NCBI RefSeq assembly: GCF_048403405.1
Contig: NZ_CP183129.1
Strand: one strand, 5' to 3'
Length of the DNA: 64,000 nt
Source: Escherichia coli
GTDB taxonomy: Bacteria; Pseudomonadota; Gammaproteobacteria; Enterobacterales; Enterobacteriaceae
The position numbers and the translations under genes were made by a program. Shown one piece after another: positions 13,984 through 48,651 of this stretch (its first letter is position 1; each line of letters opens with the position of its first letter). A model generated the notes under the pieces. It saw nothing but the letters and a program-made list of their open reading frames with translations. It was not told where the DNA came from and searched no databases.

Positions 13984-14307
13984 ATGGAACTCGTAAACCT
14001 CAAAACCGGCACTGACAGCTACCAGGATGAGAGCGGAGAAGCCAGAACTCGTGATGAATACCCGTGGGGGCTGTGCATCACTCTTAATAACGACACATTG
14101 AATAAGCTGAAGGCGCAACCTCAGGGCGTCGGAACAGAAGTGATGATAACTGCAAAGGCTGTTATTCGAGGCCTGTCTGCCAGAGAAACTGACGATGGTG
14201 TTAATCGCAGCGCCGATCTGCAGATCACTGATATGGCGATCGCTCCTGTTTCCGGGGATGTAGAAAAATCAGCGGCTGAAACTCTGTACGGCAATGGGGG
14301 TGAGTAA
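13984..14307 (+). CDS. Hypothetical virion protein
   Basis: ATG after GCAGGAGTG; about 107 aa; coupled to the next gene (ATGA overlap). Confidence 0.4.
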   Translation: MELVNLKTGTDSYQDESGEARTRDEYPWGLCITLNNDTLNKLKAQPQGVGTEVMITAKAVIRGLSARETDDGVNRSADLQITDMAIAPVSGDVEKSAAETLYGNGGE

Positions 14308-14912
14308 TGGCCTCTGTAGTAGAGATCTGCAATCGTGCGCTGTCCAATATTGGCAATAGCCGCAGCATTAACAGCCTGACGGAAGCCAGCAAGGAAGCGG
14401 GGGAATGTTCGCTGCACTTTGAGGCCTGCCGTGATGCTGTGCTTTCTGATTTTGACTGGAACTTTGCTACCAAACGCGTGGCGCTTGCAGATACGAGCAA
14501 TCCACCGCCTGACTGGGAATATGCGTATCAGTACCCGTCCGATTGTCTGCGCATTACTGAAATTATGCTTCCTGGTGTACGCAATCCAACAGCAGCAATG
14601 CGTGTTCAGTACGAAGTTGGTGCAGACACCAACGGAACAGGAAAATTGATCTACACAGACCAGCCGCAGGCATGGCTCAAGTATGTCTCTCGCGTTACAG
14701 ATGTGAACATGTTTGATGCCATTTTTATGGAGGCGTTGGCTTGGCGTCTTGCGGCAGCTATTAACATGGCGCTGACTGGGAATGCAGACCTCGGTACGTT
14801 TGCCCTCAATATGTACAATCGCGTGATTCTTAGTGCTGGCTCGCATAGCCAGAATGAATCACAGGAACCACAGCCACCGGTTGACGAGTTTACCATTGCG
14901 AGGTTGTCCTGA
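14307..14912 (+). CDS. Putative tail adaptor / tubular protein A-like
   Basis: 201 aa, in the position and size of T7 gp11; call by synteny only. Confidence 0.4.
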   Translation: MASVVEICNRALSNIGNSRSINSLTEASKEAGECSLHFEACRDAVLSDFDWNFATKRVALADTSNPPPDWEYAYQYPSDCLRITEIMLPGVRNPTAAMRVQYEVGADTNGTGKLIYTDQPQAWLKYVSRVTDVNMFDAIFMEALAWRLAAAINMALTGNADLGTFALNMYNRVILSAGSHSQNESQEPQPPVDEFTIARLS

Positions 14913-17383: not shown

Positions 17384-17847
17384 TGATCGACGTTCAAATT
17401 ATTCCCGCTACCGAAGAGCATCTTCAGATGATTTTGCCGGATGTTCGTCAGGCTGATATTGACGAACTGTATGCGGTATCGCTGATGACTACCGAAGATG
17501 CGCTGCGTGTTGGTCTGCGTACTGCGACTATGGCCTGGTCAGGATTTGCGAACGGAGAACTGGTAACCATGTTTGGCGTATCTCCGGCGTCAATGATCGG
17601 TGGCAATGGTACGCCCTGGCTGGTAGGAACCAGCCGTATTGAAAAATATCAGAAGACATTTCTTCGCCACTGCCGCCCTGTATTGCAGCAGATGCTGGCA
17701 GTTTATCCGCGCCTGGAAAACTACGTCGACGAGCGAAACCATGTTGCCAAAGCATGGCTGCACTGGCTTGGATTCAGGCTTGAAGAAGCCGCGCCTTATG
17801 GTGCTCTTGGTCTTAATTTCCACAGATTTCACATGGAGAGAAAATAA
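17383..17847 (+). CDS. Hypothetical internal virion protein (T7 gp13 position)
   Basis: 154 aa, translationally coupled. Confidence 0.35.
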   Translation: MIDVQIIPATEEHLQMILPDVRQADIDELYAVSLMTTEDALRVGLRTATMAWSGFANGELVTMFGVSPASMIGGNGTPWLVGTSRIEKYQKTFLRHCRPVLQQMLAVYPRLENYVDERNHVAKAWLHWLGFRLEEAAPYGALGLNFHRFHMERK

Positions 17848-18422
17848 TGTGCGATCCGGTTATTGCTGGTGGCGCAATGCTCGCCATGAGTGGCATTCAG
17901 GCATACACCCAGTACCAACAGGGAAAGTATGCCTCGAAGGTTGCAGAAGCGAACGCAGATATAGCCACAGCTCAGGCAAATGATGCAATAAACAGAGGTA
18001 ACGCTGAAGCTGAGCAACGACGCAGAGAGACCCGACAGCGGCTTGGTACACAGGCGGCGACAATGGGGGCTACCGGCGCTGATTTATCTACAGGTAACGC
18101 GCTGGATATATTTGGCGACACTGCCCAGTTTGGCGCTCTTGATTCGCTGACGACGGTGAATAACGCGCAACGCGAGGCTTACGGTTATCAGGTTCAGGCT
18201 GCCAACTATAAAGCAGAAGCCAGTTCAGCCCGTAAACAGGGGAATGTAGGAGCAGCAACAACATTGCTCACTGCGCCTCTGAAGGCATACGGTGCGTACC
18301 AGATGTTTGGTGGGACGTGGAGTCCGTTCTCTAAAGGAAGTACATCTAGTGGTGGGACGCCAATGTTATCTAACTCAGGTTTTATGAATTCTGACTCCCG
18401 ATTCAAAATAGGAGGTTACTGA
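17847..18422 (+). CDS. Internal virion protein (T7 gp14-like)
   Basis: 191 aa, Ala/Gln-rich helical protein in the gp14 position. Confidence 0.4.
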   Translation: MCDPVIAGGAMLAMSGIQAYTQYQQGKYASKVAEANADIATAQANDAINRGNAEAEQRRRETRQRLGTQAATMGATGADLSTGNALDIFGDTAQFGALDSLTTVNNAQREAYGYQVQAANYKAEASSARKQGNVGAATTLLTAPLKAYGAYQMFGGTWSPFSKGSTSSGGTPMLSNSGFMNSDSRFKIGGY

Positions 18423-24559: not shown

Positions 24560-25411
24560 ATGAAAAAAATAAATTTGTTTTTTGGCATAGTGCTTTCAAT
24601 AGTCTCTGTAAATCCTACAGCTGCCAGTTCATTGCAATGCAATAAGGATAACTTTGATGCATGCAAAACGTGCGAACAATTATCAAAGGCTATCGACTTA
24701 AAAGAACCTAATCGTGGCGATTACTATAGAGGGGCTTTATGGAATGGGCTTTACGCCTCTTATGTAATTAATTGCCCTGTGGTTGCAGAGAAGTTACTGA
24801 GCCATGGTGCTATACCATCATATGGCGGATATATGGGGTCTATGGGGGCGGTTCTGACAGGAAAATGGCCTCATAACAATGAATCAATAAATCTTTCATG
24901 GGCAGATTTGCTTATAAAACATGGATTTGATGTTAATAGGCATACGGGGAATTATAAATCAGCTACTGAAGTATGGGCTATAGATAAAAAACAGATTGAA
25001 TATAAGTCAGTTTTTGACAAGTTAATTCAATCCAGCGAAGTAAAACCACTCGATCCTTCAAGAAATTTAGAATGGTGTGCGTCTGAAGGGTATCGCTCAG
25101 TTGTCGTTTATTCCCTTAACTCATGTATAGAAAATGCTATAAAACGTTTGGATGACGGTGTTTCTTCAGCGTCTGATATTTCATCAGCAGCCGTAAATTC
25201 CTGTACTAGCGATGTAGAAAATTTCAATAAGCATTTGGCATGCAAAGCAGCTGTTAAAGAAAACTCTGATAAAGAGAGAAGCAACGTTTACCAGTTATTA
25301 ACCAGTGATAGTCAAATGAATAAAAATGTTATTGATATGCTGAAGGAAAGAAATATTGAAACGGTTCTTGAATTTAGAGCTGAAAATCGATCAGCGAAAA
25401 CTGCACAGTGA
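24560..25411 (+). CDS. Secreted hypothetical protein with ankyrin-like repeats (moron), AT-rich
   Basis: Signal peptide MKKINLFFGIVLSIVSVNPTAAS; two ankyrin-like segments (...AEKLLSHGAIPS..., ...ADLLIKHGFDVN...); start 1 nt after the gp16-like stop; terminator follows. Confidence 0.55.
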   Translation: MKKINLFFGIVLSIVSVNPTAASSLQCNKDNFDACKTCEQLSKAIDLKEPNRGDYYRGALWNGLYASYVINCPVVAEKLLSHGAIPSYGGYMGSMGAVLTGKWPHNNESINLSWADLLIKHGFDVNRHTGNYKSATEVWAIDKKQIEYKSVFDKLIQSSEVKPLDPSRNLEWCASEGYRSVVVYSLNSCIENAIKRLDDGVSSASDISSAAVNSCTSDVENFNKHLACKAAVKENSDKERSNVYQLLTSDSQMNKNVIDMLKERNIETVLEFRAENRSAKTAQ

Positions 25412-25417
25412 TCAAAC

Positions 25418-25442
25418 AGGCCGCTTTCGCGGCCTTGTTTTT
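25418..25442. terminator. Bidirectional terminator hairpin
   Basis: AGGCCGC-TTTC-GCGGCCT followed by TGTTTTT; hairpin core GGCCGCTTTCGCGGCC is identical to the one at 28670. Confidence 0.55.
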
Positions 25443-25602
25443 AACGAATGCCACCGCCGCCAGGGCGGGAATCCGCAGAACGCCCACCGCAGCGGGAGCC
25501 GTCAGCGGCAGTATCGCTGTCGTGCTGACAACGACCGGCAAAGGCCTGAGTTGAAGCTACCAGAGACAACAAAACGAACAGTGCAGCAAATGCTTTTTTC
25601 AT
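25441..25602 (-). CDS. Small secreted Gly/Cys-containing peptide (53 aa) with its own promoter (moron)
   Basis: Internal start MKKAFAALFVLLSLVASTQAFA gives a clean signal peptide; promoter-like hexamers upstream and terminator downstream. Confidence 0.45.
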   Translation of the reverse strand: MKKAFAALFVLLSLVASTQAFAGRCQHDSDTAADGSRCGGRSADSRPGGGGIR

Positions 25603-25615
25603 TGTGAAATTTCCA

Positions 25616-25643
25616 TCTATAAGCCACCTCAATGTGGCGTCAA
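25616..25643 (-). promoter_or_regulatory. Candidate sigma70 promoter for the small secreted peptide (-35 TTGACG, -10 TATAGA, 16-nt spacer)
   Basis: Minus-strand hexamers at 25638-25643 and 25616-25621. Confidence 0.35.
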
Positions 25644-25672
25644 TGAGTGTAGCACTGACTTTTGTTTCGTCC

Positions 25673-25695
25673 ACAAAAAAGCCCGCAGCGCGGGC
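25673..25695 (-). terminator. Minus-strand rho-independent terminator
   Basis: GCCCGC-AGC-GCGGGC followed on the minus strand by TTTTTT, immediately after the stop at 25696. Confidence 0.5.
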
Positions 25696-25929
25696 TTACT
25701 TTTCTTCAGGTTTGTTGTCTTCAGATTTCTTCTTGATGCTTGGTTTTTGTCTAAGACCGAAAATACCAGCCACTGCAACAACTGTACCGATCACTGTGCC
25801 AGCTAGAACTTCATGACCTGTTAAACCTAATAATGTTGCACAAGCTACTGTAAAAATAGTTGCACTCAGGCCAAACCACTGCCCACGTTTATCTCTATTA
25901 ATAGCCCCGTCAAGTGCCTTTTCCTCCAT
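25696..25929 (-). CDS. Small two-TM membrane protein (possibly the C-terminal part of a frameshifted larger gene)
   Basis: 77 aa with two hydrophobic segments and a Lys-rich tail; the same frame stays open upstream to ~26073. Confidence 0.45.
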   Translation of the reverse strand: MEEKALDGAINRDKRGQWFGLSATIFTVACATLLGLTGHEVLAGTVIGTVVAVAGIFGLRQKPSIKKKSEDNKPEEK

Positions 25930-25958
25930 TTTCTGGCGGTGAGCAAACTCCTTCTCCG

Positions 25959-26243
25959 TCAGCTGGAAGATGCGTTCGGGGGCATCAGGTAAAATATCCT
26001 GATACCCGCGAAGCAGATAGGGGGAGGAAGCGGACCCTGAAACGCATGGTGAGCGACAACTATCTCCTGAATTTCAGGGCGATCAAGAACTCTTGTGAAG
26101 GCATCTGGGTGTTGAATGATCTCGTTACTTAGCCCTTCCTCAACTTCCTCGAACTCAGTTTCTTCGTTATCACTTGGTTGCCCAATAGATTTTTGCATAT
26201 TTGTCGAAGGACATTCCTTTAGCTTCTGGTTTTCCTCTTGCAT
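25959..26243 (-). CDS. Acidic hypothetical protein (possibly the middle part of a frameshifted gene)
   Basis: 94-aa ORF overlapping the upstream ORF by 74 nt in another frame; C-terminus degenerates into Pro-rich sequence near a G5 run at ~26019-26026. Confidence 0.3.
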   Translation of the reverse strand: MQEENQKLKECPSTNMQKSIGQPSDNEETEFEEVEEGLSNEIIQHPDAFTRVLDRPEIQEIVVAHHAFQGPLPPPICFAGIRIFYLMPPNASSS

Positions 26244-26496
26244 TTGAGTTTTTCCCTGTCACTATTGCCCATTTTCCGCCAGCAGGCGCTGCAATTTTTT
26301 TTCCGTTCTTTACTATATATTCAGCATAAACACGATTTTCTGACCGTCTGAGATCGTCTCCGACCATATTCATGTCTCTTGATATAACTTTGACGACAGA
26401 GTCTCGGTTTAAAGCCTTGGCATAGTTGGAGCCAGGAACGATACCCAAAGGGGTGCCAGACTCTATAGCCAGCTCCTTGACATATCTTCTGCTCAT
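26170..26496 (-). CDS. Hypothetical protein, putative DNA-binding/regulatory N-terminal module
   Basis: ATG at 26496 after GAGGT; MSRRYVKELAIESGTPLGIVPGSNYAKALNRDSVVKV... Confidence 0.45.
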   Translation of the reverse strand: MSRRYVKELAIESGTPLGIVPGSNYAKALNRDSVVKVISRDMNMVGDDLRRSENRVYAEYIVKNGKKIAAPAGGKWAIVTGKNSNARGKPEAKGMSFDKYAKIYWATK

Positions 26497-26617
26497 ATGA
26501 ACCTCAACCAATCGACTTTACCAATCGGGTAATTTTAAACATGAGTATAATGCTTTTAACTGCAACGAGTGTAAACAATTATTGATAATTGTAGGCACAT
26601 CCCTGTGCCGCCGCCCG

Positions 26618-27310
26618 TCAGAAGAACCCTGCTTTGTCGTTGATGTACTCCGCGTGCGTCTGGATATCACGCAGGCATTTGCTCACACCGACGATGTAGC
26701 AGAACATGGTGGTCAACTCCGCCGCCGCGCCCGATACGTCGTGCCCGTCTTCCTGTAACTGGTTTAGCAGATTCATCAGCAGTGAGTTCTCCGTCAGGCC
26801 GAGAACACCAGACGGCGAATGAATCAGGCTGCGGTAGCCGGGCTTCAGTGGGGCGCTGTAGGTTTTGTTCTCTACCTTCATTGCCTGCATCACTGCTGAT
26901 GCTGTGGCGTTGGCTACCTGGTCGGCAACCATCTTTATGCGTTCTTCCTGCGGGAGCGAGTTTTTAATGTAACTTCCGGTGCGGCGGATCTGAGGAAGAA
27001 CCTCACCTGTAACCCATTCAAGAAATCTGAATGCTCTCGTTCCCTCAGTCATTGCCTCTTTGCAACGCAGAATAAGGATGTAGAGACCTGATTCTGAAAC
27101 GATGGATAGTTCTTGTATTCCACCAGGGGTCTGTATTGAATACAGCCCCTTTTTGTTCCAGCCTTTTTTATCAAGTTTTCTCGCTTGTGTAACATCAATA
27201 TTCAAAGCATTGCACACATCTTTGGTGACAAACCAAGGTTCTCCGTCAATCATGAACATACGGATCTGGCAGGATGACTCAAAGGAAAAGATGGAAGGTT
27301 TGGTATTCAT
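26618..27310 (-). CDS. Antirepressor (Bro-N domain plus KilA-C/ANT C-terminal domain)
   Basis: Start MNTKPSIF after AAAGGTGA; Bro-N-like N-terminus (FMIDGEPWFVTKDVCNALNI...) and ANT-like C-terminus, as recalled. Confidence 0.7.
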   Translation of the reverse strand: MNTKPSIFSFESSCQIRMFMIDGEPWFVTKDVCNALNIDVTQARKLDKKGWNKKGLYSIQTPGGIQELSIVSESGLYILILRCKEAMTEGTRAFRFLEWVTGEVLPQIRRTGSYIKNSLPQEERIKMVADQVANATASAVMQAMKVENKTYSAPLKPGYRSLIHSPSGVLGLTENSLLMNLLNQLQEDGHDVSGAAAELTTMFCYIVGVSKCLRDIQTHAEYINDKAGFF

Positions 27311-27669
27311 AGCGATCACCTTTGTAGTTAGGTTAATCACCACCGCTGAGACCAATCAGATGGTGGTGAACTGTGCAGAGTTGGTCTTACCGGCTACAAA
27401 GGAACCCGGCGCACCTTTCGGTGCCCCCACACAGCCCACCATAGAATAGGTGCGCTTTACACATAAAAAAACCGCTTATGCGGCATATGTGCCTCTGTAG
27501 TAATCCGGGAGACCAATCCCGGCACTGGATTTTGCCAGTGCCCGATTACTATGGCACAAGAGGAGTGCAATGTAAATTTACCGAAAAGGTAATAATAAAT
27601 GCATAACTCACGTTATTTCAACCCTATATGGTTTGATTTATCCCATTTCAGAAAATACCTGCCTATTTT

Positions 27670-27699
27670 TTTGCCAGTATGCGTATACTTTCGATAGAA
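27670..27699 (+). promoter_or_regulatory. Candidate sigma70 promoter (-35 TTGCCA, 18-nt spacer, -10 TAGAAT) for the 27718 operon
   Basis: Hexamers read directly from the sequence; palindrome site 5 abuts the -10. Confidence 0.4.
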
Positions 27700-27701
27700 T
27701 G

Positions 27702-27716
27702 TTTACCCTAGAGGTA
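27702..27716. promoter_or_regulatory. Palindrome TTACC-CTAGA-GGTAG (operator-like site 5, one arm imperfect)
   Basis: Lies between the -10 hexamer and the start codon, an operator-like position. Confidence 0.4.
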
Positions 27717-27717
27717 G

Positions 27718-28173
27718 TTGGGGGTGCCCGTGAACACGAAGAGAGCTACAGTAATGCAGCATTTGAGGAAATCAGAAAAAAATAAAGACCATGAAATATT
27801 GAGTAAGGCCATTGTTCGGGCTTCCAATAATACTGTTATACCTCATGCTGAAGAGTCTGGACAGAAATTTCTTATTCGGTATTTCACTGAAAATAGTGCA
27901 GTTGAGGAGATTTTAAAACATCAGGGAGGGGAATTTAAATGTGGAAAACTGGCAGATTATGTTCGTCGTGAAACGTCTGAACAAGAAGTATATTATGCTG
28001 ATATTAATCATAAGTCAGGTGTGAAAATTGTAATAGGCTATTACACAACTCCCAAAAATGTTATGCATGAGGTCCCAAAGATGTCCGTCGAGAAATCTCA
28101 TGCAATCTCGCGCAGGATGTTTGCACGCACTGCCGAAGATATGGCTCAGGAGCTCTACGACGATGCTGAATAA
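27718..28173 (+). CDS. Hypothetical protein with acidic C-terminus; candidate antitoxin/immunity partner of the downstream YafO-like gene (ATG alternative at ~27754)
   Basis: 151-aa ORF, AT-rich; its stop overlaps the start of the next gene (ATGCTGAATAA). Confidence 0.45.
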   Translation: MGVPVNTKRATVMQHLRKSEKNKDHEILSKAIVRASNNTVIPHAEESGQKFLIRYFTENSAVEEILKHQGGEFKCGKLADYVRRETSEQEVYYADINHKSGVKIVIGYYTTPKNVMHEVPKMSVEKSHAISRRMFARTAEDMAQELYDDAE

Positions 28174-28477
28174 ATTCCAGGGGTTGGTTCACCCTGGAAT
28201 TTTTGGGAAGGACCCTGAGCTAATACCTATCAAAAACGCGTTCATAGATCACTGGCGCTACGGTCATCATAAGGATTTCGGAAAGGACACTCTGTTTCGG
28301 GATCCACCGAAAGAAATGCTGGAATATCACATACGCCACGTTCACGTAAACATCGGAAACTATACTGACAAGTTTGGTGAGAGCGGTACGGACAATGCTG
28401 GAAAAACTGGGCGTCTGGGAAGAAAGACAAGACCACTAACAAGCATAAAAAGATCCCAACCAGTGACGTGTATGTGA
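28163..28477 (+). CDS. YafO-like toxin, N-terminal part (gene appears frame-split)
   Basis: FGKDTLFRDPPKEMLEYHIRHVHV resembles the recalled YafO motif FGRDALYDD...ERVAHIHL. Confidence 0.4.
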   Translation: MLNKFQGLVHPGIFGKDPELIPIKNAFIDHWRYGHHKDFGKDTLFRDPPKEMLEYHIRHVHVNIGNYTDKFGESGTDNAGKTGRLGRKTRPLTSIKRSQPVTCM

Positions 28478-28668
28478 TTTATCTGGTCACATCTGAACGC
28501 CATGCCTTCCTTCTGGATTATTGGGATGAACCAGCACATAAGACAGTAGAAATTGACGAGCAGAAGCAAAAATTAGTTGTCGAGTGTGACAGAATTTTGC
28601 GGCTGAAAAAGTTAGAATCCATGCCGCGCGATGCTAGTTTGTGGGACCCAGAATTTTACGACTGTTAA
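28468..28668 (+). CDS. YafO-like toxin, C-terminal part in the -1 frame
   Basis: YLVTSERHAFLLDYWDEPAHK resembles recalled YafO HLVYCQGAFDEQAWLLIAILKPEPHK; overlaps the previous ORF by 10 nt. Confidence 0.35.
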   Translation: MYVIYLVTSERHAFLLDYWDEPAHKTVEIDEQKQKLVVECDRILRLKKLESMPRDASLWDPEFYDC

Positions 28669-28669
28669 T

Positions 28670-28692
28670 GGCCGCTTTCGCGGCCTTTAAAT
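28670..28692. terminator. Bidirectional terminator hairpin
   Basis: GGCCGC-TTTC-GCGGCC followed by TTTAAATTT; same hairpin sequence as at 25419-25434. Confidence 0.5.
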
Positions 28693-28950
28693 TTACCGGG
28701 TTTGTTTTCGTAATTGTTCGGCACAATAGTCGAGATGTGTTTGCAGATCCCGCATAGACATCTGTGAGCTGGTGACGTAGTTAATCAGTGCAGTCAGTTC
28801 GGCAAGTGGGCCATCGACATTAAATCCATCCTTATCGAGATCCCGGAGTAATTTCATCAAGTGCGATCCCTCCACCAGTGACCTGACGCCTCCCGGCGTG
28901 TGAATCCTTTCGGTAAATCCGTCTTCCAGTGGATAGTGATACTGCTGCAT
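28693..28950 (-). CDS. Stand-alone KilA-C/ANT C-terminal domain protein (paralog of the antirepressor C-terminus)
   Basis: Internal ATG at 28950 after GGAGAAG; MQQYHYPLEDGFTERIHTPGGVRSLVEGSHLMKLLRDLDKDGFNV... aligns with the C-terminal ~85 aa of the antirepressor at 26618-27310. Confidence 0.6.
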   Translation of the reverse strand: MQQYHYPLEDGFTERIHTPGGVRSLVEGSHLMKLLRDLDKDGFNVDGPLAELTALINYVTSSQMSMRDLQTHLDYCAEQLRKQTR

Positions 28951-29026
28951 CTTATCTTCTCCATGCAATAACTGTATGTTTATACAGTAACAAATAATTT
29001 GTTTGCTATCCAGCACGTTTTGCAAA

Positions 29027-29041
29027 TTACCTGAAAGGTAA
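29027..29041. promoter_or_regulatory. Palindrome TTACC-TGAAA-GGTAA (operator-like site 6) in the divergent region upstream of the tailspike gene
   Basis: Perfect palindrome; followed by ATATCTATTCGTA (also beside site 1) and TATGTGGTT-N5-GGTAATA. Confidence 0.45.
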
Positions 29042-29145
29042 TATCTATTCGTATTTACAGCCTTTCTATCCATATGTGGTTTTTCAGGTAATAGAATAAC
29101 CAGATATGCGGCGCAACGGGTGCTGCGACTATCTGGAGATTTAAC

Positions 29146-31797
29146 ATGACGGTCTCAACCGAAGTTGACCACAACGAATACACTGGTAACGGAGCTACGA
29201 CATCATTTCCGTATACCTTCCGTATTTTCAAAAAATCCGACCTGGTTGTTCAGGTGTCTGACCTGAACGGGAACGTAACAGAATTGGTTCTGGATACTGA
29301 CTACACAGTAACCAATGCTGGAGGATATAATGGCGGTAATGTAATTCTGTCGAAGGCGTTGGCTAACGGTTATCATATTTCTATATCACGAGAGCTCCCG
29401 GTTACGCAGGATACTGATTTGCGTAATCAGGGTAAGTTCTTCGCTGAGGTACATGAAGACGCGTTCGATAAACTGACAATGCTTATTCAAAAGTGTTTTT
29501 CATGGATGAGGTTAGCACTTATAAAACCAAGCATTCTGGCTAACTATTATGATGCAAAAAATAATAAGATATCAAATCTAGCAAATGCCACTGACAGAAA
29601 CGATGCTGTCAATAAAGGTTATGTTGATGATCTTTTTACTGGAGGTGTAACGCCTACACCTAACAGCGTTAAAAACGATATTTTTACAAATCACCAAAGA
29701 AAGATTGTAGCTACGATGCCGCTTCTTTTTCCTGAATATGATGCGATTATGGCTGCTAACCCGTCAGCAACTTATATGTATCCTCAAGGATTCTGCGTTA
29801 GCGAAGATTTGATATACATCACTTATCCATTTGAGCCTAAACAGACGAATAATGTCGTCGCAGTATTTAACATATCTGGTATTTATCAAGGTTATTTCTA
29901 TGTTCAGGCTGGCGGCCCAGGCTTCGCTGCTGAAGGAATCGTGGTTACGTCAGACTATGGCCCCAAAAAAATGTTTGTTGGTCACACAAACGGAATACTG
30001 CGTGAATTTAATATGGAGGGGGCATTATACGGAAGCAATCTGCCTCTTGTACAAAACCATGATGTTGGATTATTCAACCAGTTCAGCTACAGAAGAGGTA
30101 TATGGCTCGTTGAGCAGAATGCGCCAGAAGTAGGACAGAAAATCACAAGAACTGTACTTGCAGTGTTCGACAGTGGTTTCAATCGCCTGTCAACTATAAC
30201 GCTGCCGTTACATGATGTTGGGTATGTAACTAAAAGCACCTCACCTTATGCGCCTTATTTCAACAAGCGTCAGGGTATTGCGGTAGGTGATAACTACTTT
30301 GTCTGCGGCTATGGCGGCTTCATAGCTGATGGGGCAGGAAGCGCAGGATATAACGAATATCAGGGCAGCAAAGTTTTTAACCCTGACGGTACAAAGCGAA
30401 CTGAATCAATGCTTCATCCTCAGGCCATGATGGATTTAATGAAAGCCGCAGGATTGAACGTCACTCGCATAGAAAATGAAGGCGTTTGTGTTTCTCAGGA
30501 TGGAAAATCCATTTATTCACTTTACATTCATCAGGAAAGAACTGGCTCTGAACCTTACAATTCAGGTTTGGTTATTTTCGAAGATTTCTCCACTGATAAA
30601 GATGCTATCGATTTTACACCTGCATCCAGGCTTTACCGCGGATTTGATATCGATCACGCGAGCATTGGGGTATATCCCCGTAGTGCGAAGGGGATTGTTA
30701 ACCCTGTAGATGGTACGTTGTTCACTAACATGACTGAAATTCTTCGCTATATGCAGGAGATGAGTCAGAAGGCATTTAATTTTTACACAGGGACTGTCAG
30801 CATTGCTGATATATCTGGCGTGGCAATCCCTTCCAGCACATATGTTGAAATACTGAATGCGAATAATCAGACTTTTATAGTCAACTATTATTCATCTGAT
30901 AGTGGTATTAGTTATTTGGTTGCAACTAATCCTTCTGGTGACTTTGTATTTGTGCGCCAGCGACCGGCACAGTGGGCATCTAACTTAACCATTCAGCAAA
31001 ACGCAGATCCTGATACAAACCAATTAAACCGCATCACTGCATCATCATATGCCGGTGCAACTACAAACTCTCAGAAAATATTGGTCCTTGACCAGCAGGC
31101 TACAGCTAGCGCAAATAGCTTGGTATTGGGCGGTAGTTCTTCTGTGTTTAGGTCTGCCACCACGGTGGATATTGCATGCAACAGCGACCCGACAGCATTG
31201 GGAGGAACCATACGCTGGCGGTTTTATGATACAGGTCTTCGCCCGTTTGCTGACAATACCTATAATTTTGGTCAGGCATCGTTTCGTATTAAAGACGCCT
31301 ACTTTGCAAATGCCCCAACCGTTTCATCAGATGCCACGCTGAAAACCAATCCCGAGGCAATATCAGATTTAAGTGAAATGCTTTCTTCTGATAGAGACAG
31401 CATTCTTGATGCCTGGGGCGATATTTCTGTTGTGGCGTATCGATGGCTCGACGCTATATCCATGAAGGGCGATGGTGCCAGATGGCATTTTGGCGTCATG
31501 GCTCAGCAGGTAAGGGATGTATTCTTGGCGCACGGAATTGATGGAACCAGATTTGGCCTTCTTTGCTATGACGAGTGGGATGATATTTTTGAGCCGGTAA
31601 TCGCGACTAAAGAGATTACCGATACGTCTGGTGAGTTGGTCACCGTCGAATATGACACCGGAGAACAGAGGCTGGTTAAAAAAGCGGGTAGTTCATGGGG
31701 TATACGGCCTGACCAGTGCGCTTGGCTTGAGGCTGCATATCAGCGCCGTCGATGCGATCGTATTGAAGAGCGACTCGAACTATTGGAATCAAAATAA
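29146..31797 (+). CDS. Tailspike protein with epsilon15/CBA120-type N-terminal particle-binding domain and C-terminal self-cleaving intramolecular chaperone (peptidase S74-like) domain
   Basis: N-terminus MTVSTEVDHNEYTGNGATTSFPYTFRIFKKSDLVVQV as recalled for this tailspike family; C-terminal ~156 aa (from ~31327) with SDATLK, YRW, FGVMAQQV blocks typical of endosialidase-chaperone domains. Confidence 0.8.
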   Translation: MTVSTEVDHNEYTGNGATTSFPYTFRIFKKSDLVVQVSDLNGNVTELVLDTDYTVTNAGGYNGGNVILSKALANGYHISISRELPVTQDTDLRNQGKFFAEVHEDAFDKLTMLIQKCFSWMRLALIKPSILANYYDAKNNKISNLANATDRNDAVNKGYVDDLFTGGVTPTPNSVKNDIFTNHQRKIVATMPLLFPEYDAIMAANPSATYMYPQGFCVSEDLIYITYPFEPKQTNNVVAVFNISGIYQGYFYVQAGGPGFAAEGIVVTSDYGPKKMFVGHTNGILREFNMEGALYGSNLPLVQNHDVGLFNQFSYRRGIWLVEQNAPEVGQKITRTVLAVFDSGFNRLSTITLPLHDVGYVTKSTSPYAPYFNKRQGIAVGDNYFVCGYGGFIADGAGSAGYNEYQGSKVFNPDGTKRTESMLHPQAMMDLMKAAGLNVTRIENEGVCVSQDGKSIYSLYIHQERTGSEPYNSGLVIFEDFSTDKDAIDFTPASRLYRGFDIDHASIGVYPRSAKGIVNPVDGTLFTNMTEILRYMQEMSQKAFNFYTGTVSIADISGVAIPSSTYVEILNANNQTFIVNYYSSDSGISYLVATNPSGDFVFVRQRPAQWASNLTIQQNADPDTNQLNRITASSYAGATTNSQKILVLDQQATASANSLVLGGSSSVFRSATTVDIACNSDPTALGGTIRWRFYDTGLRPFADNTYNFGQASFRIKDAYFANAPTVSSDATLKTNPEAISDLSEMLSSDRDSILDAWGDISVVAYRWLDAISMKGDGARWHFGVMAQQVRDVFLAHGIDGTRFGLLCYDEWDDIFEPVIATKEITDTSGELVTVEYDTGEQRLVKKAGSSWGIRPDQCAWLEAAYQRRRCDRIEERLELLESK

Positions 31798-31828
31798 GAC
31801 CAAATTTAGGTAATTATTATCCGTAAAT

Positions 31829-31885
31829 GGTTTATTGTGTATGATGGACCTCATCTTCTAAGGGGGTTTTTATGCACAATAAACG
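31829..31885 (+). promoter_or_regulatory. Inverted repeat (GGTTTATTGTG ... CACAATAAACG) enclosing two mini-ORFs, between the tailspike and the lysis genes
   Basis: ~11-bp arms separated by ~35 nt containing ATGATGGACCTCATCTTCTAA (MMDLIF-stop) and ATGCACAATAAACGGTGGTTACCATGA (MHNKRWLP-stop). Confidence 0.3.
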
Positions 31886-31894
31886 GTGGTTACC

Positions 31895-32296
31895 ATGAAT
31901 GGCACGGTTACGGCGGATTCACTGAATCAAGGGTTAAGCTTGGGTGCGCTGGCCTCTGTCGTCTACGGCGTTCCGCCAGAGGTGGCTCTCGGTGCTCTGG
32001 CTGGTGCGGTAATATTTGTTACCTCTGCTGTAGAGTATCCTGTTCGTCGTCGTGTACTCTTGTCGATACTCAGCTTTCTTTGTGGTCTTCTCTTTTACAA
32101 ACCAACAACATCAATTCTTATCGGAATAGCCAGCATGATACCTACCATCACGCAGGACTCTTTCGAGAAAGGGATTGTTTTCTCTGCTGGCGCATTCGTG
32201 TCAGCAATTGTCGCAGTGCGAATTGGTATATGGCTCTATCACCGCTCCGATAATCCACGCGACTTAATTCAGGGGAGAAAAGGCGATGGTAACTAA
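31895..32296 (+). CDS. Multi-TM membrane protein (holin or antiholin-like)
   Basis: ATG at 31895 after GGTGG; about four predicted TM segments; directly upstream of the holin and endolysin genes. Confidence 0.45.
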   Translation: MNGTVTADSLNQGLSLGALASVVYGVPPEVALGALAGAVIFVTSAVEYPVRRRVLLSILSFLCGLLFYKPTTSILIGIASMIPTITQDSFEKGIVFSAGAFVSAIVAVRIGIWLYHRSDNPRDLIQGRKGDGN

Positions 32297-32594
32297 TGAG
32301 CTTGTTTTGCTTATCACCAATGCAATTATTTGTACTGGCATAGCAATTCGCGTTGTCACATTCCGGCGTAACGGCTCTCAACATCGAAGATGGGGAGGGT
32401 GGCTTGCTTATTTCCTTATTGTTGCTGCGGCCAGTATTCCTGTTCGAGTCGCCTATGCAATCTGGTTACGTACGCCAATGGCTGTGGATTTATCTGAGGT
32501 CATTATCAACGCTGTCATGCTTGCCGCGGTTATTAAAACACGCGGTAACGTTGTTCAGATTTTCAAAACATCGAGGTCTAAACATGGAGATTAA
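32286..32594 (+). CDS. Holin (three-TM class)
   Basis: 102 aa, three hydrophobic helices, charged C-terminus; overlaps the endolysin start. Confidence 0.55.
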
Positions 32595-33213
32595 ACAATT
32601 CCAGCGAGCTGCTGGTATTAGCGAGGCTCTGGCCGCACGCTGGTTCTCGCATATAACTTCTGCGATGAAAGAGTTTGGTATCAGAAAACCCGAAGATCAG
32701 GCAATGTTTATTGCTCAAGTCGGGCATGAGTCTGGGGGCTTCACTAGGTTGCAGGAGAATTTCAACTACAGCGTCACAGGACTGGCTAACTTTGTTCGGG
32801 CAGGACGTCTCACTCAGGGACAGGCCAACGCATTGGGGCGACGCGCAGGCGAACCACCATTGCCACTTGAGCGCCAGAGAGCGATTGCCAATCTGGTGTA
32901 CAGCAAACGCATGGGGAACAATGCCCCCGGCGATGGCTGGAATTACCGTGGCCGCGGACTTATCCAGATTACCGGTTTGAATAACTATCGTGATTGCGGA
33001 AACGGCCTGAAAGTGGACCTGCTGGAGAATCCTGAACTGTTGGCGCAGGACGAATACGCGGCTCGTAGCGCGGCGTGGTTCTTCTCCAGCAAAGGTTGCA
33101 TGAAGTATACCGGCGATATTGCACGTGTAACTCTGATTATCAATGGTGGCAGGAATGGCATCGACGACCGGCGCGCGCGGTACGTCACTGCCAGTAAGGT
33201 GCTGGCTGTATGA
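32584..33213 (+). CDS. Endolysin, glycoside hydrolase family 19 (chitinase-like lysozyme)
   Basis: Internal ATG at 32584; motifs [12 protein letters not shown] and [11 protein letters not shown] typical of GH19 endolysins (recalled). Confidence 0.8.
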
Positions 33214-33692
33214 TCTGGTCATTCGTAAAAGCATACCGTAAACAGTTGATTATCATGGCGGTGCTTGCTGTTCTGGTCATATCAGGAGTTGTTGCCTGGA
33301 ATGTGCACGGCAGTCGTCAGTACGACGCTGGGTATGCACAGGCGAAAGAAGACCGCAAAACCGAAGATGAGAGAGTTCGTCAGCACTACGAACAGGAGAA
33401 ATCGATCAATGAACGTGAAGCGCAGCAGAGGATCGACCAGGCGCGCAATGATGCTCTTGATGCTGCCGCTCGCGCTGGCCGGTTGCAGCAACAGCTCGTT
33501 GCCATCCGTGAGCAGCTCAGGCACTATAACGCCATTGTCGGCGCTGGGTCGTCAGCCGCAGACACCGGAGTTTTGCTTGCCGACGTGTTCAGCAAATCTC
33601 TCGAGAGAAATAGACAACTGGCAGAGTATGCTGACCGGGCAGCCGAAGCCGGAAGAGTCTGCGAAAAACAGTACGACACCCTGACCAGATAG
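33210..33692 (+). CDS. Rz-like i-spanin
   Basis: N-terminal TM anchor followed by charged coiled coil; start overlaps the endolysin stop (ATGA); contains an embedded +1-frame lipoprotein gene. Confidence 0.65.
33409..33684 (+). CDS. Rz1-like o-spanin (outer-membrane lipoprotein) embedded in the Rz frame
   Basis: +1-frame ORF with RBS AGGAGA; signal peptide ending in lipobox LALAGC; Pro/Ser-rich mature part. Confidence 0.55.
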   Translation: MNVKRSRGSTRRAMMLLMLPLALAGCSNSSLPSVSSSGTITPLSALGRQPQTPEFCLPTCSANLSREIDNWQSMLTGQPKPEESAKNSTTP

Positions 33693-33796
33693 CATGGCAT
33701 TTTTCATGGTACTGATTTCCGGTGACGGTATATAAAACGGTACGAGAAAAATTTATCTTTGGAAAAATGTTATCACTCAATTGGTTATGTGTGTCG

Positions 33797-33817
33797 TAAA
33801 TAATTGAGTGGGAATGA
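33797..33817 (+). other. guaA: Prophage right junction (attR region) carrying the orphan 3' end of guaA (ATT GAG TGG GAA TGA = IEWE-stop)
   Basis: In-frame stop TAA then ATA ATT GAG TGG GAA TGA; E. coli GuaA ends ...TIEWE (recalled); followed by a strong terminator and then yfgI, the K-12 neighbour of guaA. Confidence 0.45.
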
Positions 33818-33843
33818 TTTTGATCCCTGCACTATGAATGAAC

Positions 33844-33874
33844 AAAACCCTCTGTTACTACAGAGGGTTTTTTA
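33844..33874. terminator. Bidirectional rho-independent terminator (guaA/yfgI intergenic)
   Basis: AAAACCCTCTG-TTACTAC-AGAGGGTTTTTT. Confidence 0.6.
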
Positions 33875-33911
33875 TCTTCAAGAATTATAGGCTTGAAGTT
33901 ACTTACATCGA

Positions 33912-34451
33912 TTAATTAAACCAGCTGTCCGATTTGTTCTCTTCTGCTTTGCCCACGCTTTTCATCAGATCTCGACCGCCCTCAGTCATATTCCTGTTTG
34001 CGTCAGCTTCAGATTGCACCACATCGGTTTGCGCAGCTTTGTGCTTCAGTTCCTGATCGATAAATTCGTTTTCTCGCTTAACGCGGGCTTCTTCTTTCGC
34101 CAGCGCCAGTTTTTGTTTCTGAATCTCTAAGCTGCGTAGCTCATCTTGATAACTTTGATCGCGTTTTTTGTCCGCAGAGGCTTCGGCGTCCAGTTTATCC
34201 TGACGAGCTTTCTTATTTGCCGCTGCCGTTGCCGCTCTTTTGTTAGCGGCGGCCTGGGCGTTTGCGCGACGTTGCTTCTCTTGCTGGATTTCCCTGTTGC
34301 GCTCCGCGACCCATTCGTCATGCTGCCTTTGCTCTTCATTTTTACCTTGCTGTTCCGCTTCTGCGACAGCAGAGAGTTGATCCTGCAATGATGAGGCGAT
34401 AGCCGGATAGCTTAAGGAGGCTAAGATGGCGCAAAGAAAAACTTTCTTCAT
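33912..34451 (-). CDS. yfgI: YfgI, periplasmic coiled-coil protein
   Basis: 179 aa with signal peptide; size and synteny match K-12 yfgI. Confidence 0.8.
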   Translation of the reverse strand: MKKVFLCAILASLSYPAIASSLQDQLSAVAEAEQQGKNEEQRQHDEWVAERNREIQQEKQRRANAQAAANKRAATAAANKKARQDKLDAEASADKKRDQSYQDELRSLEIQKQKLALAKEEARVKRENEFIDQELKHKAAQTDVVQSEADANRNMTEGGRDLMKSVGKAEENKSDSWFN

Positions 34452-34466
34452 GACTCCTCCTGATCA

Positions 34467-34985
34467 TTAGCTCTTTTCAGGACATTTGGTATTTGGCTGA
34501 ATACGCGTTTCGTTATACGTCGTGGTAATAACAACGGCTAAACCTGTCGTAAACTGGCACTCTTTACCCACCTGGGTGGAGGTATACACTTTGGTGCCTT
34601 CCTTATACGTTAGAGAAACACCTTCCACTAAGGTTTTATCATTCACCATAGAACCCGCTGCCGCGCCAACAGCTCCGCCGCCAACTGCACCTGCCGTCGT
34701 TCCGGAATTGCTGCCAGACCCGACGTTGTGGCCAATAACACCGCCAGCGACTGCACCAATAAGCGCGCCGAAGGCTTGTGCGTTTCGTTTATTTTGGGAG
34801 TTGTCTACGGCAACTTTTGCGGGAAGAATGGAAATAATATTAACGGTTTTAGTTTCTTGTTTGGTATTCAGTTGAACGGTTTGATAAACATCGGCGGCAT
34901 GATCATCAGCATTTGACTGGCATCCTGCCAGAGTGAATGACGCTAACATTACCACAGGCAGAAGACATTTTTTAAATTTCATCAC
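34467..34985 (-). CDS. yfgH: YfgH, glycine-zipper outer-membrane lipoprotein
   Basis: 172 aa, lipobox LAGC, Gly-rich glycine-zipper segment. Confidence 0.85.
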   Translation of the reverse strand: MMKFKKCLLPVVMLASFTLAGCQSNADDHAADVYQTVQLNTKQETKTVNIISILPAKVAVDNSQNKRNAQAFGALIGAVAGGVIGHNVGSGSNSGTTAGAVGGGAVGAAAGSMVNDKTLVEGVSLTYKEGTKVYTSTQVGKECQFTTGLAVVITTTYNETRIQPNTKCPEKS

Positions 34986-35295
34986 TATTCCTTGTTATAC
35001 ACATTACGAAAAATAAGACATTTAAGATCATCAAAAAAGGAAAGTAAATGTATTGCGTATTAAGGAATAGATTAAATTTATTAAAATTCATGTGGAAAAT
35101 AATTTATAAAAATACATCATTAAAACATATGTATTAATTTTATATTTATTTCGCAGCCAAACAGGATAAACATCAGTCAGGACAAAGACGTAAAATTTAA
35201 GATGAAAGAATATCTGCCGCTTTGATAATCCCAAAGAGCAAAAGCATCCGACAGCGAGGTGCCGTTATGTTCTGTGAAAGTGGAGAAGGTAACCG

Positions 35296-35487
35296 CTAAC
35301 GTTGTACCGGTGATTCGACGGAGAGTGTGGATTGCTGAGCTTCTTTTTTGCTCTGATGGTGCTGCCATGCACCGACGGACGAGTAGATAAAACGGCCAAA
35401 GAAGAAGATAAAGCTGATGAGCAGTACGATACGGGTCATGCGACTGTTAAATCGGTGTCGTTTTCGCATACTGGTTGCCTGACTCAC
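35296..35487 (-). CDS. yfgG: YfgG, small membrane protein
   Basis: 63 aa, single TM; size and synteny match K-12. Confidence 0.75.
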   Translation of the reverse strand: MSQATSMRKRHRFNSRMTRIVLLISFIFFFGRFIYSSVGAWQHHQSKKEAQQSTLSVESPVQR

Positions 35488-35697
35488 AAAAGGTTCCTTG
35501 AAGTATGTCCCACGCTGTGGACGGTACTTACATTAAGGCACAACAGGACAAAATGGTCAATTCTTCGTTATGTAAAAAAGCGTCAGTGGATACATATTTT
35601 AATGTTATGGAAGTTAATTTAATTATTTACAATGATGATGTAATAATGATGAATTAACATGATAAACGTAATAATTCATTAATCAGGGTTATTTTGT

Positions 35698-35711
35698 TTG
35701 ATATATATCAA
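35698..35711 (+). promoter_or_regulatory. FNR box (TTGAT-ATAT-ATCAA) upstream of pdeF, with -10 TAGAAT at ~35733-35738
   Basis: Perfect match to the FNR consensus TTGAT-N4-ATCAA about 22 bp upstream of a -10 hexamer (class II arrangement). Confidence 0.6.
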
Positions 35712-35838
35712 TTGGAACTTTCATATGACACTTAGAATCAATGCTCTCTATAGTGATGAATAATCATCATTCGAAGTCAGGTGGGATGCCTGTCTGAATA
35801 CACCTCCTTCAGGATGTGGGGGATTCTGCTGAGCATCT

Positions 35839-38082
35839 ATGAAACTGAATGCAACTTATATAAAAATACGTGATAAATGGTGGGGGCTTCCGCTGTTCCT
35901 GCCTTCTTTAATCTTGCCCATTTTCGCCCACATTAATACTTTCGCGCATATTTCTTCCGGTGAGGTTTTTCTCTTTTATCTGCCTCTGGCTCTGATGATC
36001 AGCATGATGATGTTTTTCAGCTGGGCGGCATTGCCAGGGATCGCCTTAGGGATTTTTGTCCGCAAATATGCAGAGCTGGGTTTTTACGAAACGCTCTCAT
36101 TAACGGCTAATTTTATTATCATTATCATTCTCTGTTGGGGCGGTTACAGGGTCTTTACTCCCCGGCGTAACAACGTTTCACATGGTGATACCCGTTTAAT
36201 TTCCCAGCGTATATTCTGGCAGATTGTGTTTCCTGCAACGCTGTTTCTGATACTTTTCCAGTTTGCTGCGTTTGTAGGATTACTGGCGAGCAGAGAAAAT
36301 CTGGTCGGCGTCATGCCTTTTAATCTCGGGACCTTAATCAATTATCAGGCCTTACTGGTGGGCAATCTGATTGGTGTCCCGCTGTGCTACTTCATCATTC
36401 GTGTAGTGCGAAATCCGTTTTATTTACGTAGTTATTATTCGCAATTAAAACAGCAGGTTGATGTCAAAGTCACCAAAAAAGAGTTCGCACTCTGGCTACT
36501 GGCATTAGGTGCTTTACTGCTGCTGTTATGCATGCCGTTAAATGAAAAAAGCACAATTTTTAGCACCAACTATACCTTGTCATTATTGCTGCCCCTGATG
36601 ATGTGGGGAGCGATGCGCTATGGTTATAAGCTGATTTCGCTGCTCTGGGCGGTCGTGTTGATGATCAGCATCCACAGCTATCAAAATTACATTCCCATTT
36701 ATCCTGGCTATACCACGCAGCTGACCATAACCTCCTCCAGTTATCTGGTATTCTCTTTTATTGTCAATTATATGGCTGTACTGGCAACCCGTCAGAGAGC
36801 GGTTGTCAGACGCATTCAGCGGCTTGCGTATGTGGACCCGGTAGTTCATCTGCCAAATGTTCGCGCCCTGAATCGCGCGTTGCGTGATGCCCCCTGGTCT
36901 GCGCTTTGTTATTTACGCATCCCTGGCATGGAAATGCTGGTTAAGAACTATGGCATCATGCTGCGGATTCAATACAAGCAAAAACTTTCTCACTGGCTGT
37001 CACCCTTGCTGGAACCGGGTGAGGATGTTTATCAGCTTTCGGGTAACGATCTCGCGCTGCGACTGAATACAGAATCGCACCAGGAGCGCATTACCGAACT
37101 GGATAGCCATCTCAAGCAATTTCGTTTCTTTTGGGATGGAATGCCGATGCAACCGCAGATTGGCGTCAGTTACTGCTATGTGCGCTCGCCAGTGAATCAT
37201 ATCTACCTGCTGCTGGGAGAGCTAAATACGGTCGCCGAACTTTCCATCGTGACCAACGCCCCGGAAAATATGCAGCGTCGCGGGGCAATGTATTTGCAAC
37301 GCGAATTGAAAGATAAAGTCGCGATGATGAATCGACTACAGCAGGCGCTGGAACACAACCATTTTTTCCTGATGGCCCAGCCGATTACCGGTATGCGTGG
37401 CGATGTCTACCATGAAATTCTTCTGCGCATGAAAGGTGAGAATGATGAACTGATCAGCCCCGACAGCTTCTTGCCGGTCGCGCACGAATTTGGTTTATCG
37501 TCGAGTATCGACATGTGGGTCATTGAGCATGCGCTGCAATTTATGGCTGAAAACAGAGCGAAGATGCCCGCTCACCGTTTTGCCATTAATCTGTCGCCAA
37601 CCTCGGTATGTCAGGCTCGTTTTCCCGTTGAAGTCAGTCAGCTGCTGGCTAAATATCAAATTGAAGCGTGGCAACTTATTTTTGAAGTCACCGAAAGTAA
37701 TGCTCTGACAAATGTTAAGCAGGCGCAAATCACCTTGCAGCATCTTCAGGAATTAGGCTGCCAGATTGCGATTGATGATTTCGGCACCGGCTACGCCAGC
37801 TATGCGCGGCTTAAAAATGTGAATGCCGATCTGCTTAAAATTGACGGCAGTTTTATCCGCAATATTGTGTCAAATAGTCTGGATTATCAGATAGTGGCGT
37901 CGATTTGCCACCTGGCGCGAATGAAGAAAATGCGGGTAGTGGCAGAGTACGTTGAAAACGAAGAGATCCGCGAGGCGGTGCTCTCTTTGGGGATCGATTA
38001 TATGCAGGGTTATCTTATTGGTAAGCCGCAACCGTTAATTGATACGCTGAATGAAATCGAACCCATTCGCGAAAGTGCCTGA
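35839..38082 (+). CDS. pdeF: c-di-GMP phosphodiesterase PdeF (YfgF): membrane MASE1 domain, degenerate GGDEF, EAL
   Basis: 747 aa, N-terminal multi-TM region and C-terminal EAL signature; size and synteny match K-12. Confidence 0.9.
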   Translation: MKLNATYIKIRDKWWGLPLFLPSLILPIFAHINTFAHISSGEVFLFYLPLALMISMMMFFSWAALPGIALGIFVRKYAELGFYETLSLTANFIIIIILCWGGYRVFTPRRNNVSHGDTRLISQRIFWQIVFPATLFLILFQFAAFVGLLASRENLVGVMPFNLGTLINYQALLVGNLIGVPLCYFIIRVVRNPFYLRSYYSQLKQQVDVKVTKKEFALWLLALGALLLLLCMPLNEKSTIFSTNYTLSLLLPLMMWGAMRYGYKLISLLWAVVLMISIHSYQNYIPIYPGYTTQLTITSSSYLVFSFIVNYMAVLATRQRAVVRRIQRLAYVDPVVHLPNVRALNRALRDAPWSALCYLRIPGMEMLVKNYGIMLRIQYKQKLSHWLSPLLEPGEDVYQLSGNDLALRLNTESHQERITELDSHLKQFRFFWDGMPMQPQIGVSYCYVRSPVNHIYLLLGELNTVAELSIVTNAPENMQRRGAMYLQRELKDKVAMMNRLQQALEHNHFFLMAQPITGMRGDVYHEILLRMKGENDELISPDSFLPVAHEFGLSSSIDMWVIEHALQFMAENRAKMPAHRFAINLSPTSVCQARFPVEVSQLLAKYQIEAWQLIFEVTESNALTNVKQAQITLQHLQELGCQIAIDDFGTGYASYARLKNVNADLLKIDGSFIRNIVSNSLDYQIVASICHLARMKKMRVVAEYVENEEIREAVLSLGIDYMQGYLIGKPQPLIDTLNEIEPIRESA

Positions 38083-47187: not shown

Positions 47188-48651
47188 TTACATCTTGGTA
47201 TAAGGCTTAAAGCGTTCCTGCAGTTGGCGCAACTGGTCGATGCGCGCATCGTAACGCGCTTGTTGCAGGCTGCCTAATTTCACCTGAGAACTGGCGCTAC
47301 TCAACAAGGAAATGGCCTGATCGAGTCGCCCGGCGAGCGCATAACCTTCTGCTCGCGCAGCCAGTTCCTGATCGCGGTTATTTAGCGCGGCCTCCGCCTG
47401 TGCCAGTAAATCCCAGCCATTGCTGTCATCTTTATTATTAAATGTGTAGCGATTCAGAATATTGGCCGCTTCTTGTGGTTGGCCGCCTTGCAGATAAGCG
47501 TTCGCCAGGTTGAGCTGCAACACCGGATTGGTGCGCAAATCACGGGCATTTTTCAGGCGATTGATAGCGTCATTGGCTTTGTTTTGCCCAAGATCGATAT
47601 CGGTAGCCAGATCGAGATACCATGCGTTGCCAGGTTCTGCCGCCAGTAACGGTTGCAGCGTTTTACGCGCCTCGTCGTATTTATTGGCTTCCATCGCCTG
47701 TAAAGCACGACCATATTGTGCTGCTCGTTCCTGACGAACGTTTCCTTTCGCCCATTCATCCAGCAAATCACTGGTGAGCTGGTTACGTCCGGAATTATAC
47801 ATCCCCAGTGTGCGCGCTTTCGCCAGATAGAAATCTTCCGACGACTGCACCACCATCGGGCGCATCTGATTAGCACGGTTGCGGGCATCTGCCAGACGAC
47901 TTTCCGGCAATGGGTGAGTCAATAAAATTTCCGGCGGACGCGAGGAGTAACGCGCCTGATCGAGCAATTTTTCGAGGAAGGTCGGCATCGCCTGCGGATC
48001 GAATCCCGAGCGTTGCAGCACCTGAATACCAATGCGGTCCGCTTCCTGTTCATTTTGCTGGGTGAAACTGATCATCCCCTGGCGCGTTCCCGCCAGTGTA
48101 CCGGTCAGCGCCGCCATCCCCGCCTGCGGACTGGCCATCGCCAGTAAAATAGAACCTAACGCGCCGACCCAGGTCAGCGGCGCGCTGCGTTGTTGATCTT
48201 CCATCGCTCGCGCCAGGTGACGTTGGGTGACGTGGGAGATTTCGTGCGCCATAACTGAAGCCAGTTGACTTTCGTTATCGGAATAACGGAACAGGGCAGA
48301 GTGCAGCACCACGTTGCCGCCAAAGAAAGCAAAGGCGTTAATTTCGTCGTTGTTGATCAGAAAAAAATGAAACGGTGTCTTAACCGAATTGGCATGCGAA
48401 ACCAGACGCATCCCCAGCGAATTAATATATTGCGTTAACAGCGGGTCATTAATTAACGGCGCGCTGCCGCGTAGCTGGCGGACATAATAGTCGCCCATCT
48501 GCATTTCCTGACCAATGGAAAGCGTGCTTCCTGCGGAGGTTCCCATATCCGGCAAGGTGTCTGCGCTGTCGGCAAACGCCGGGGCTACCTGACCAATGGT
48601 CATGGCAGCAATGAGGGTTGCAACCAGGTTTTTTTTCAACTGCCTGAACAT
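47188..48651 (-). CDS. bepA: Periplasmic beta-barrel assembly-enhancing protease BepA (M48 metalloprotease with TPR domain)
   Basis: 487 aa, signal peptide, [10 protein letters not shown] zinc motif, C-terminal TPR-like repeats. Confidence 0.9.

Follow-up and report, generated by a model that had tools for sequence, protein, structure and literature searches.

Right attachment site of an epsilon15/phiV10-type prophage at the 3' end of guaA in Escherichia coli

Results

The DNA examined was a 64,000-nt stretch of Escherichia coli NZ_CP183129.1 (assembly GCF_048403405.1), called here the window. It opens in the immunity/replication region of a prophage, continues through the phage lysis genes and passes, at about 33.8 kb, into the chromosomal genes yfgI, yfgH, yfgG and pdeF, whose names were taken from RefSeq relatives. 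The features are given below by window position.

1-33819, + strand: epsilon15/phiV10-type (Uetakevirus) prophage, its right-hand 33.8 kb, beginning in the immunity/replication region and ending with attR
31886-32296, + strand: holin-type gene (phrog_198 holin, E = 3e-38)
32286-32594, + strand: holin-type gene (phrog_217 holin, E = 4.5e-35)
32584-33213, + strand: endolysin, GH19 type (phrog_181 endolysin, E = 5.7e-92; counterpart in lysogen EFF60 annotated GH19)
33210-33692, + strand: Rz-like spanin, last gene of the prophage (phrog_312 Rz-like spanin, E = 1.2e-58)
33409-33684: embedded Rz1 lipoprotein frame (epsilon15/phiV10 annotation; +1 frame with LALAGC)
33693-33802, + strand: P arm of attP kept at attR (base-for-base alignment to the left arm of attP in phiV10 and epsilon15)
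33722-33731, in the P arm: predicted arm-type integrase site GTGACGGTAT (same 10-mer as in the AY150271.2 annotation)
33797-33799: in-frame TAA, phage-derived, 5' of the IEWE codons
33800-33802: ATA codon
33803-33814: ATT GAG TGG GAA (IEWE) codons
33815-33817: guaA stop codon TGA
33803-33819, + strand: 17-bp common core ATTGAGTGGGAATGATT of attR, identical in attP, attB, attL and attR
33820-33911, + strand: B' arm, made up of native sequence between guaA and yfgI (100% identical to strain 675SK2)
33844-33871: predicted native guaA intrinsic terminator (AAAACCCTCTGT-TACT-ACAGAGGGTTTT plus T-run, 12-pair stem)
33912-34451, - strand: yfgI (DUF5384), 179 aa, first chromosomal gene right of the prophage, convergent with guaA
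34467-34985, - strand: yfgH (ORF)
35296-35487, - strand: yfgG (ORF)
35839-38082, + strand: pdeF/yfgF (ORF)
34467-38082: chromosomal synteny block yfgH-yfgG-pdeF, in the same order in 675SK2, EFF60 and lysogen B19695

An earlier note on this DNA had read here a stop codon followed by ATA ATT GAG TGG GAA TGA, and this is exactly what stands at 33797-33817 (TAA ATA ATT GAG TGG GAA TGA; with its surroundings up to 33819, cgTAA ATA ATT GAG TGG GAA TGA tt). These codons had been placed right after a lysis cassette. The order of the cassette was as described but not the immediacy, since the Rz stop codon lies at 33690-33692 and 110 bp of P arm separate it from the core. A strong terminator and then yfgI had been read next, and both are present, the hairpin at 33844-33871 as a prediction and yfgI on the minus strand at 33912-34451. 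The E. coli GuaA protein ends in ...GKPPATIEWE*, in agreement with the ...TIEWE terminus given in the earlier note, and the core contains the last four guaA codons (IEWE), the stop TGA and two further bases. These 17 bp, of which 15 are coding, are the only guaA sequence at attR. In the window ATTGAGTGGGAATGATT occurs exactly once, and 0.2 copies would be expected with up to three mismatches.

The limits of the core were derived from alignments on both sides of the junction. A 351-bp query across the site matched 5,411 of 5,426 complete E. coli genomes, and homology to prophage-free E. coli began at window position 33803 (query position 154). Thousands of prophage-free genomes aligned rightward from this base with guaA and yfgI adjacent, as the earlier note had them, and the prophage-free strain 675SK2 was 100% identical to the window from 33803 rightward. 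On the phage side, a query running from Rz to the site matched free phages up to 33819 (or 33820; query position 610), with identities of 99.8% for phiv142-3, 99.0% for EC.W1-9, 93.9% for phiV10, 93.1% for vB_EcoP_ZX5 and 86.9% for epsilon15. Since chromosomal homology starts at 33803 and phage homology runs to 33819, the two overlap by exactly 17 bp, ATTGAGTGGGAATGATT. The right boundary of the prophage is fixed to the base, at 33819. The earlier note had proposed an alignment with an uninterrupted guaA-yfgI locus, and this alignment places the breakpoint at 33803 and the core at 33803-33819. In a few genomes (hits H8 and H24, NZ_CP019558.1 and NZ_CP172173.1) the chromosomal match starts at the core and no guaA is annotated beneath it; such matches may mark the attR of a different element or simply a missing annotation.

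We then compared the four kinds of site in a five-way alignment of the attP of epsilon15, the attP of phiV10, the attL of EFF60, the attR of the window and the attB of 675SK2. The core ATTGAGTGGGAATGATT was invariant in the five sequences, and it was also identical at the attL and attR of B19695. On the left flank attP equalled attR and attL equalled attB, and on the right flank attP equalled attL and attR equalled attB. As read from the alignment, this pattern across attP, attB, attL and attR is the signature of conservative site-specific recombination. No identity between attP and attB extended beyond the 17 bp in this alignment, the adjoining flanks being unrelated, and the sole further likeness between them is a terminator hairpin farther right. 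The IEWE codons had been taken in the earlier note for the displaced native 3' end of guaA. That the breakpoint falls at these codons stands; since phage and host have the same core, a native and a phage-supplied end are inseparable inside it.

The two arms of attR differ in origin. The P arm contains the predicted integrase site given above, and the epsilon15 record (AY150271.2) carries 10-bp "integrase" protein_bind features in both arms, each of them GTGACGGTAT, and annotates IHF sites around the core. In the B' arm, the predicted native terminator has a fold of -19.4 kcal/mol (z = -5.8), and none of 200 shuffled sequences folded as well. With its G+C-rich hairpin and T-run 3' of the stop codon, the predicted structure is a rho-independent terminator by the usual features of sequence.

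The body of the prophage is colinear, at about 97% identity, with Escherichia phages EC.W1-9, HEMP4, TL-2011b, vB_EcoP_ZX5 and phiv142-3, and it is colinear with the EFF60 prophage as well. Its best phage matches are Uetakevirus-type phages, and this homology and colinearity bear out the epsilon15-type assignment made in the earlier note. Window positions 8516-18328 were 97.7% identical to a region of the EFF60 prophage whose annotation includes the portal, the major capsid protein, a Bbp16-family cement protein and the gp10 capsid staple. No phage record covered more than 82% of a query made of window positions 1-25000, and no complete E. coli genome covered more than 81% of positions 25400-35400 (best match, 97.9% identity). 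The tailspike gene (29146-31797) is a mosaic: its first ~165 amino acids match many phage tail-protein families (head-binding module), while the remainder matches the phrog_1171 tail spike and differs from the GH28-related counterpart of EFF60. Two identical 18-bp copies of GGCCGCTTTCGCGGCCTT, which is a small GC hairpin by itself, stand as direct repeats at 25419-25436 and 28670-28687 and flank a 3.25-kb accessory module with an Ant-type anti-repressor (26618-27355, minus strand) and small genes; the cargo found there in related lysogens is different and includes YafO toxins and a DUF4760 gene. A phage-borne tRNA-Arg (anticodon TCT) lies at 8703-8779 on the minus strand, between the terminase and portal genes, and the same holds for EFF60 and B19695.

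The left end of the prophage was sought in the window and in relatives. The 64-kb window contains no second core, the sole other match being at 52866, on the opposite strand, with three mismatches and in unrelated chromosome; nor did tblastn find in the window a significant match to the body of GuaA or to an epsilon15-type integrase. The whole arrangement can be seen in the complete genome of lysogen EFF60, where the order is xseA, guaB, guaA, core, tyrosine integrase, ~37 kb of prophage, DUF2514/Rz, core and yfgI, with the cores at 10669-10685 (attL) and 47982-47998 (attR) of the extracted locus (L001). B19695, a second complete lysogen and among the closest matches to the right end of the window, has the same layout. 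The first base of the window corresponds to position 16831 of the EFF60 locus, within the immunity/replication region, so that in an EFF60-like prophage some 6.2 kb would separate attL from the left edge of the window. Judging from these relatives, the attR of the window would be paired with guaA at the other end, and the attL and int of the source genome probably lie some 6 kb beyond the left edge.

The earlier note had expected an intact guaA at attL with a phage-supplied 3' end. In EFF60 and B19695 an intact gene is indeed found there, beside the integrase; the part of attL that clearly comes from the phage is the sequence after the core, with a replacement terminator. The same GuaA accession (WP_000138282.1) is found in the lysogen EFF60 and the non-lysogen 675SK2, so that in this pair the GuaA of the lysogen is unchanged. 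The P' arm expected at the attL of the source genome would read AACAGCTAACTCATAGC...AACCCTCTGTTTTT[A/G]CAGAGGGTTTTT. In the epsilon15 and phiV10 genomes the 17-mer lies between Rz and int, ~190 bp 5' of int. Of the complete E. coli genomes searched (5,426), 527 had the attR junction (Rz, core, yfgI) and 567 the attL junction (guaA, core, P'); guaA prophage junctions thus occur in about 10% of them. At the attL of EFF60 (L001 10677-10712) the right half of the core, GGAATGATT, recurs inverted as AATCATTCC 19 nt into the P' arm, and the epsilon15 record has an annotated "RNaseIII" site over the corresponding P' stretch just after the core. This inverted pair arises in attP and attL only, not in the attR of the window.

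Discussion

We are highly confident that the junction described here is the attR of a prophage of the epsilon15/phiV10 type that has entered guaA at its last four codons, with its attL at the end of guaA. A second reading accepts the attR as genuine but holds that guaA does not adjoin the left end of this prophage, either because another guaA-targeting element stands in tandem with it or because int and attL have been deleted, leaving a defective prophage. The left end does fall outside the window, some genomes give up to three or four matches to the junction query, and many different elements use this core. However, in EFF60 and B19695 the prophage is single and its attL directly adjoins guaA, the attL and attR junctions are similar in number (567 and 527), and the 33.8 kb of prophage in the window are colinear with intact phages, and we consider this second reading very unlikely.

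The core is also known from experiment. In a study of phage vB_EcoP_ZX5 (PMC9782041), "attgagtgggaatgatt" was defined as the attP core, 190 bp 5' of the integrase gene, and, at the end of guaA (3'), also as the attB core; attB, attL and attR were verified by PCR and Sanger sequencing, and the identical sequence was given as the attP of phiV10 and epsilon15. The core at 33803-33819, which we derived independently from alignments, exactly matches the published attgagtgggaatgatt. The integrase of epsilon15 and related integrases have been assigned to a cluster whose target is the 3' flank of guaA (PMC8138268), and with the same core reported in PMC9782041 the statement of the earlier note that epsilon15-type phages integrate in guaA is well founded. 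Fifteen coding bases of guaA are too few by themselves for a gene fragment and might invite the view that the IEWE codons and stop were left behind by a deleted guaA or a pseudogene, or match by chance, with no recombination core involved, but this has a negligible probability and is refuted by the sequence left of 33803, which follows the left arm of attP in free phages base for base, by the 17-mer that the free phages themselves carry, an exact match far beyond chance, and by a boundary that coincides exactly with the experimentally defined core (PMC9782041).

Returning to the attR of a guaA prophage, its site, core and integrase family are all published, and the feature is already known and ordinary. 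The 3' end of guaA being a well-documented integration site, the earlier reading was right and what it described is a textbook case. The main value of the present analysis is for annotation, in that it gives the exact right boundary and the Uetakevirus-type identity of the prophage. It also implies that guaA is not disrupted, with attL and int predicted at the distance from the window given above.

The following mechanism would account for the arrangement. Integration would be catalyzed by a phage tyrosine integrase with an arm-binding domain (P4/IntSXT-type, the "epsilon15 cluster"), whose gene would stand beside attL, outside the window. The attP carries the 17 bp ATTGAGTGGGAATGATT, equal to the last four codons of guaA plus the stop and the next two bases. 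Aided by IHF, the integrase would synapse attP with the guaA terminus and exchange strands inside the 17-bp identity, as in lambda, and a lambda-like integrase/IHF mechanism is indeed the most likely one. Strand exchange would part guaA from its native terminator, with the prophage in between. The order at attR is Rz, P arm (with GTGACGGTAT and predicted IHF sites), core, native guaA terminator and yfgI, and that at attL would be guaA body, core, P' arm with the phage terminator, and int. With the last four codons and the stop all inside the core, guaA would be regenerated at attL. There the phage terminator would keep guaA terminated and insulate int, and the native terminator left at attR, facing yfgI, would stop read-through from the lysis operon. 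Where in the core the strands are cut, what the arm and IHF sites do and which roles the two terminators play are inferred.

The general logic is that of lambda Int/IHF and of P4-type integration into the 3' ends of tRNA genes, with an arm-binding tyrosine integrase, a short identity core and, on the element, a copy of the 3' end of the gene by which the target is kept intact. The target differs, being the last codons of a protein gene at guaA, an intergenic site for lambda and a tRNA gene for P4. Among the phages that use guaA, phiV10, vB_EcoP_ZX5 and phiv142-3 (Uetakevirus) have the identical core, a P arm 93.9-99.8% identical and the lysis cassette just before attP, whereas the accessory region and the tailspike of the window prophage are mosaic with respect to theirs. 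Epsilon15 (AY150271) shares the core, GTGACGGTAT in both arms, the order Rz-attP-terminator-int and the integrase family, but its arm is 86.9% identical, its host is Salmonella and its record contains O-antigen conversion genes. Other guaA-targeting elements with epsilon15-cluster integrases, such as CMGI-3 (PMC8138268), have the same target, and the 17-mer was shared in our scan, but their arms and cargo are unrelated to those of the window prophage. These other elements are probably for the most part genomic islands or ICEs and not podophages.

The terminators on the two sides of the prophage resemble each other. Both the epsilon15 and phiV10 records annotate a phage terminator 3' of the core, with a fold of -15 to -16.5 kcal/mol, and phage and host share the hairpin AACCCTCTG...CAGAGGGTT. 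When window positions 33846-33872 were compared with phiV10 (L004) and with EFF60 (L001 10729-10755), the sequence of phiV10 (AACCCTCTGTTTTTACAGAGGGTTTTT) equalled the native one (AACCCTCTGTTACTACAGAGGGTTTTT) at 25 of 27 positions, the stem being identical and both differences lying in the loop; the terminators of EFF60 and epsilon15 equalled it at 24 of 27. None of 2000 shuffles reached the score of this phage/native alignment. The distance from the core to the terminator is 44 nt in attP and 26 nt in attB. Among the matches listed, no guaA-downstream sequence came near the phage terminator except that of a Uetakevirus-like attL (L015). At the sequence level, the likeness points to either a host 3' flank captured by the phage or the scar of an older element.

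The core was also found in other prokaryotes. An exact 17-mer scan with one genome per species, which does not give frequencies, yielded at least 120 loci (L005-L124), and in at least about 100 of these ATTGAGTGGGAATGATT closes a frame that encodes GuaA (...KPPATIEWE* or nearly that). The hosts among the matches listed include alpha-, beta- and gamma-proteobacteria, Clostridia, Bacteroidota, Verrucomicrobia, an actinobacterium and an archaeon. Among the 120 matches listed, tblastn found an epsilon15-type integrase (42-83% identity) at 35 loci, in most of which it lies on the strand of the core and has its start 190-330 bp past it. This integrase-beside-core pattern agrees with the published "epsilon15 cluster". 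Most arms among the matches listed have an element-borne terminator hairpin after the core.

The duplicated terminator and the cross-phylum core are small comparative points of possible interest for the evolution of integration sites. We offer only tentatively, and think it somewhat improbable, the broader proposal that attP carries a diverged guaA 3' flank (captured from a host, or matched by a native flank that is itself a scar) and that the end of guaA is a pan-prokaryotic landing pad whose flanks have been repeatedly rewritten. Two further post-core arms were noticed in the scan, one in several genera of Enterobacterales (L011, L028, L041, L082, L101 and L042), with the sequence TCGCGTCTGGCAACAGCCTGCACGTAAAAGCAGTAAAG...AAGCCCGCGTAACTGCGGGCTTTTTT, and one in Clostridia MAGs (L038, L074, L077, L104 and L105), with the sequence TCAGA(A/G)GCCCGGAAAAGCC...GTGGCAACGATTTGGCAACA; they probably belong to the attL of further element families with this target.
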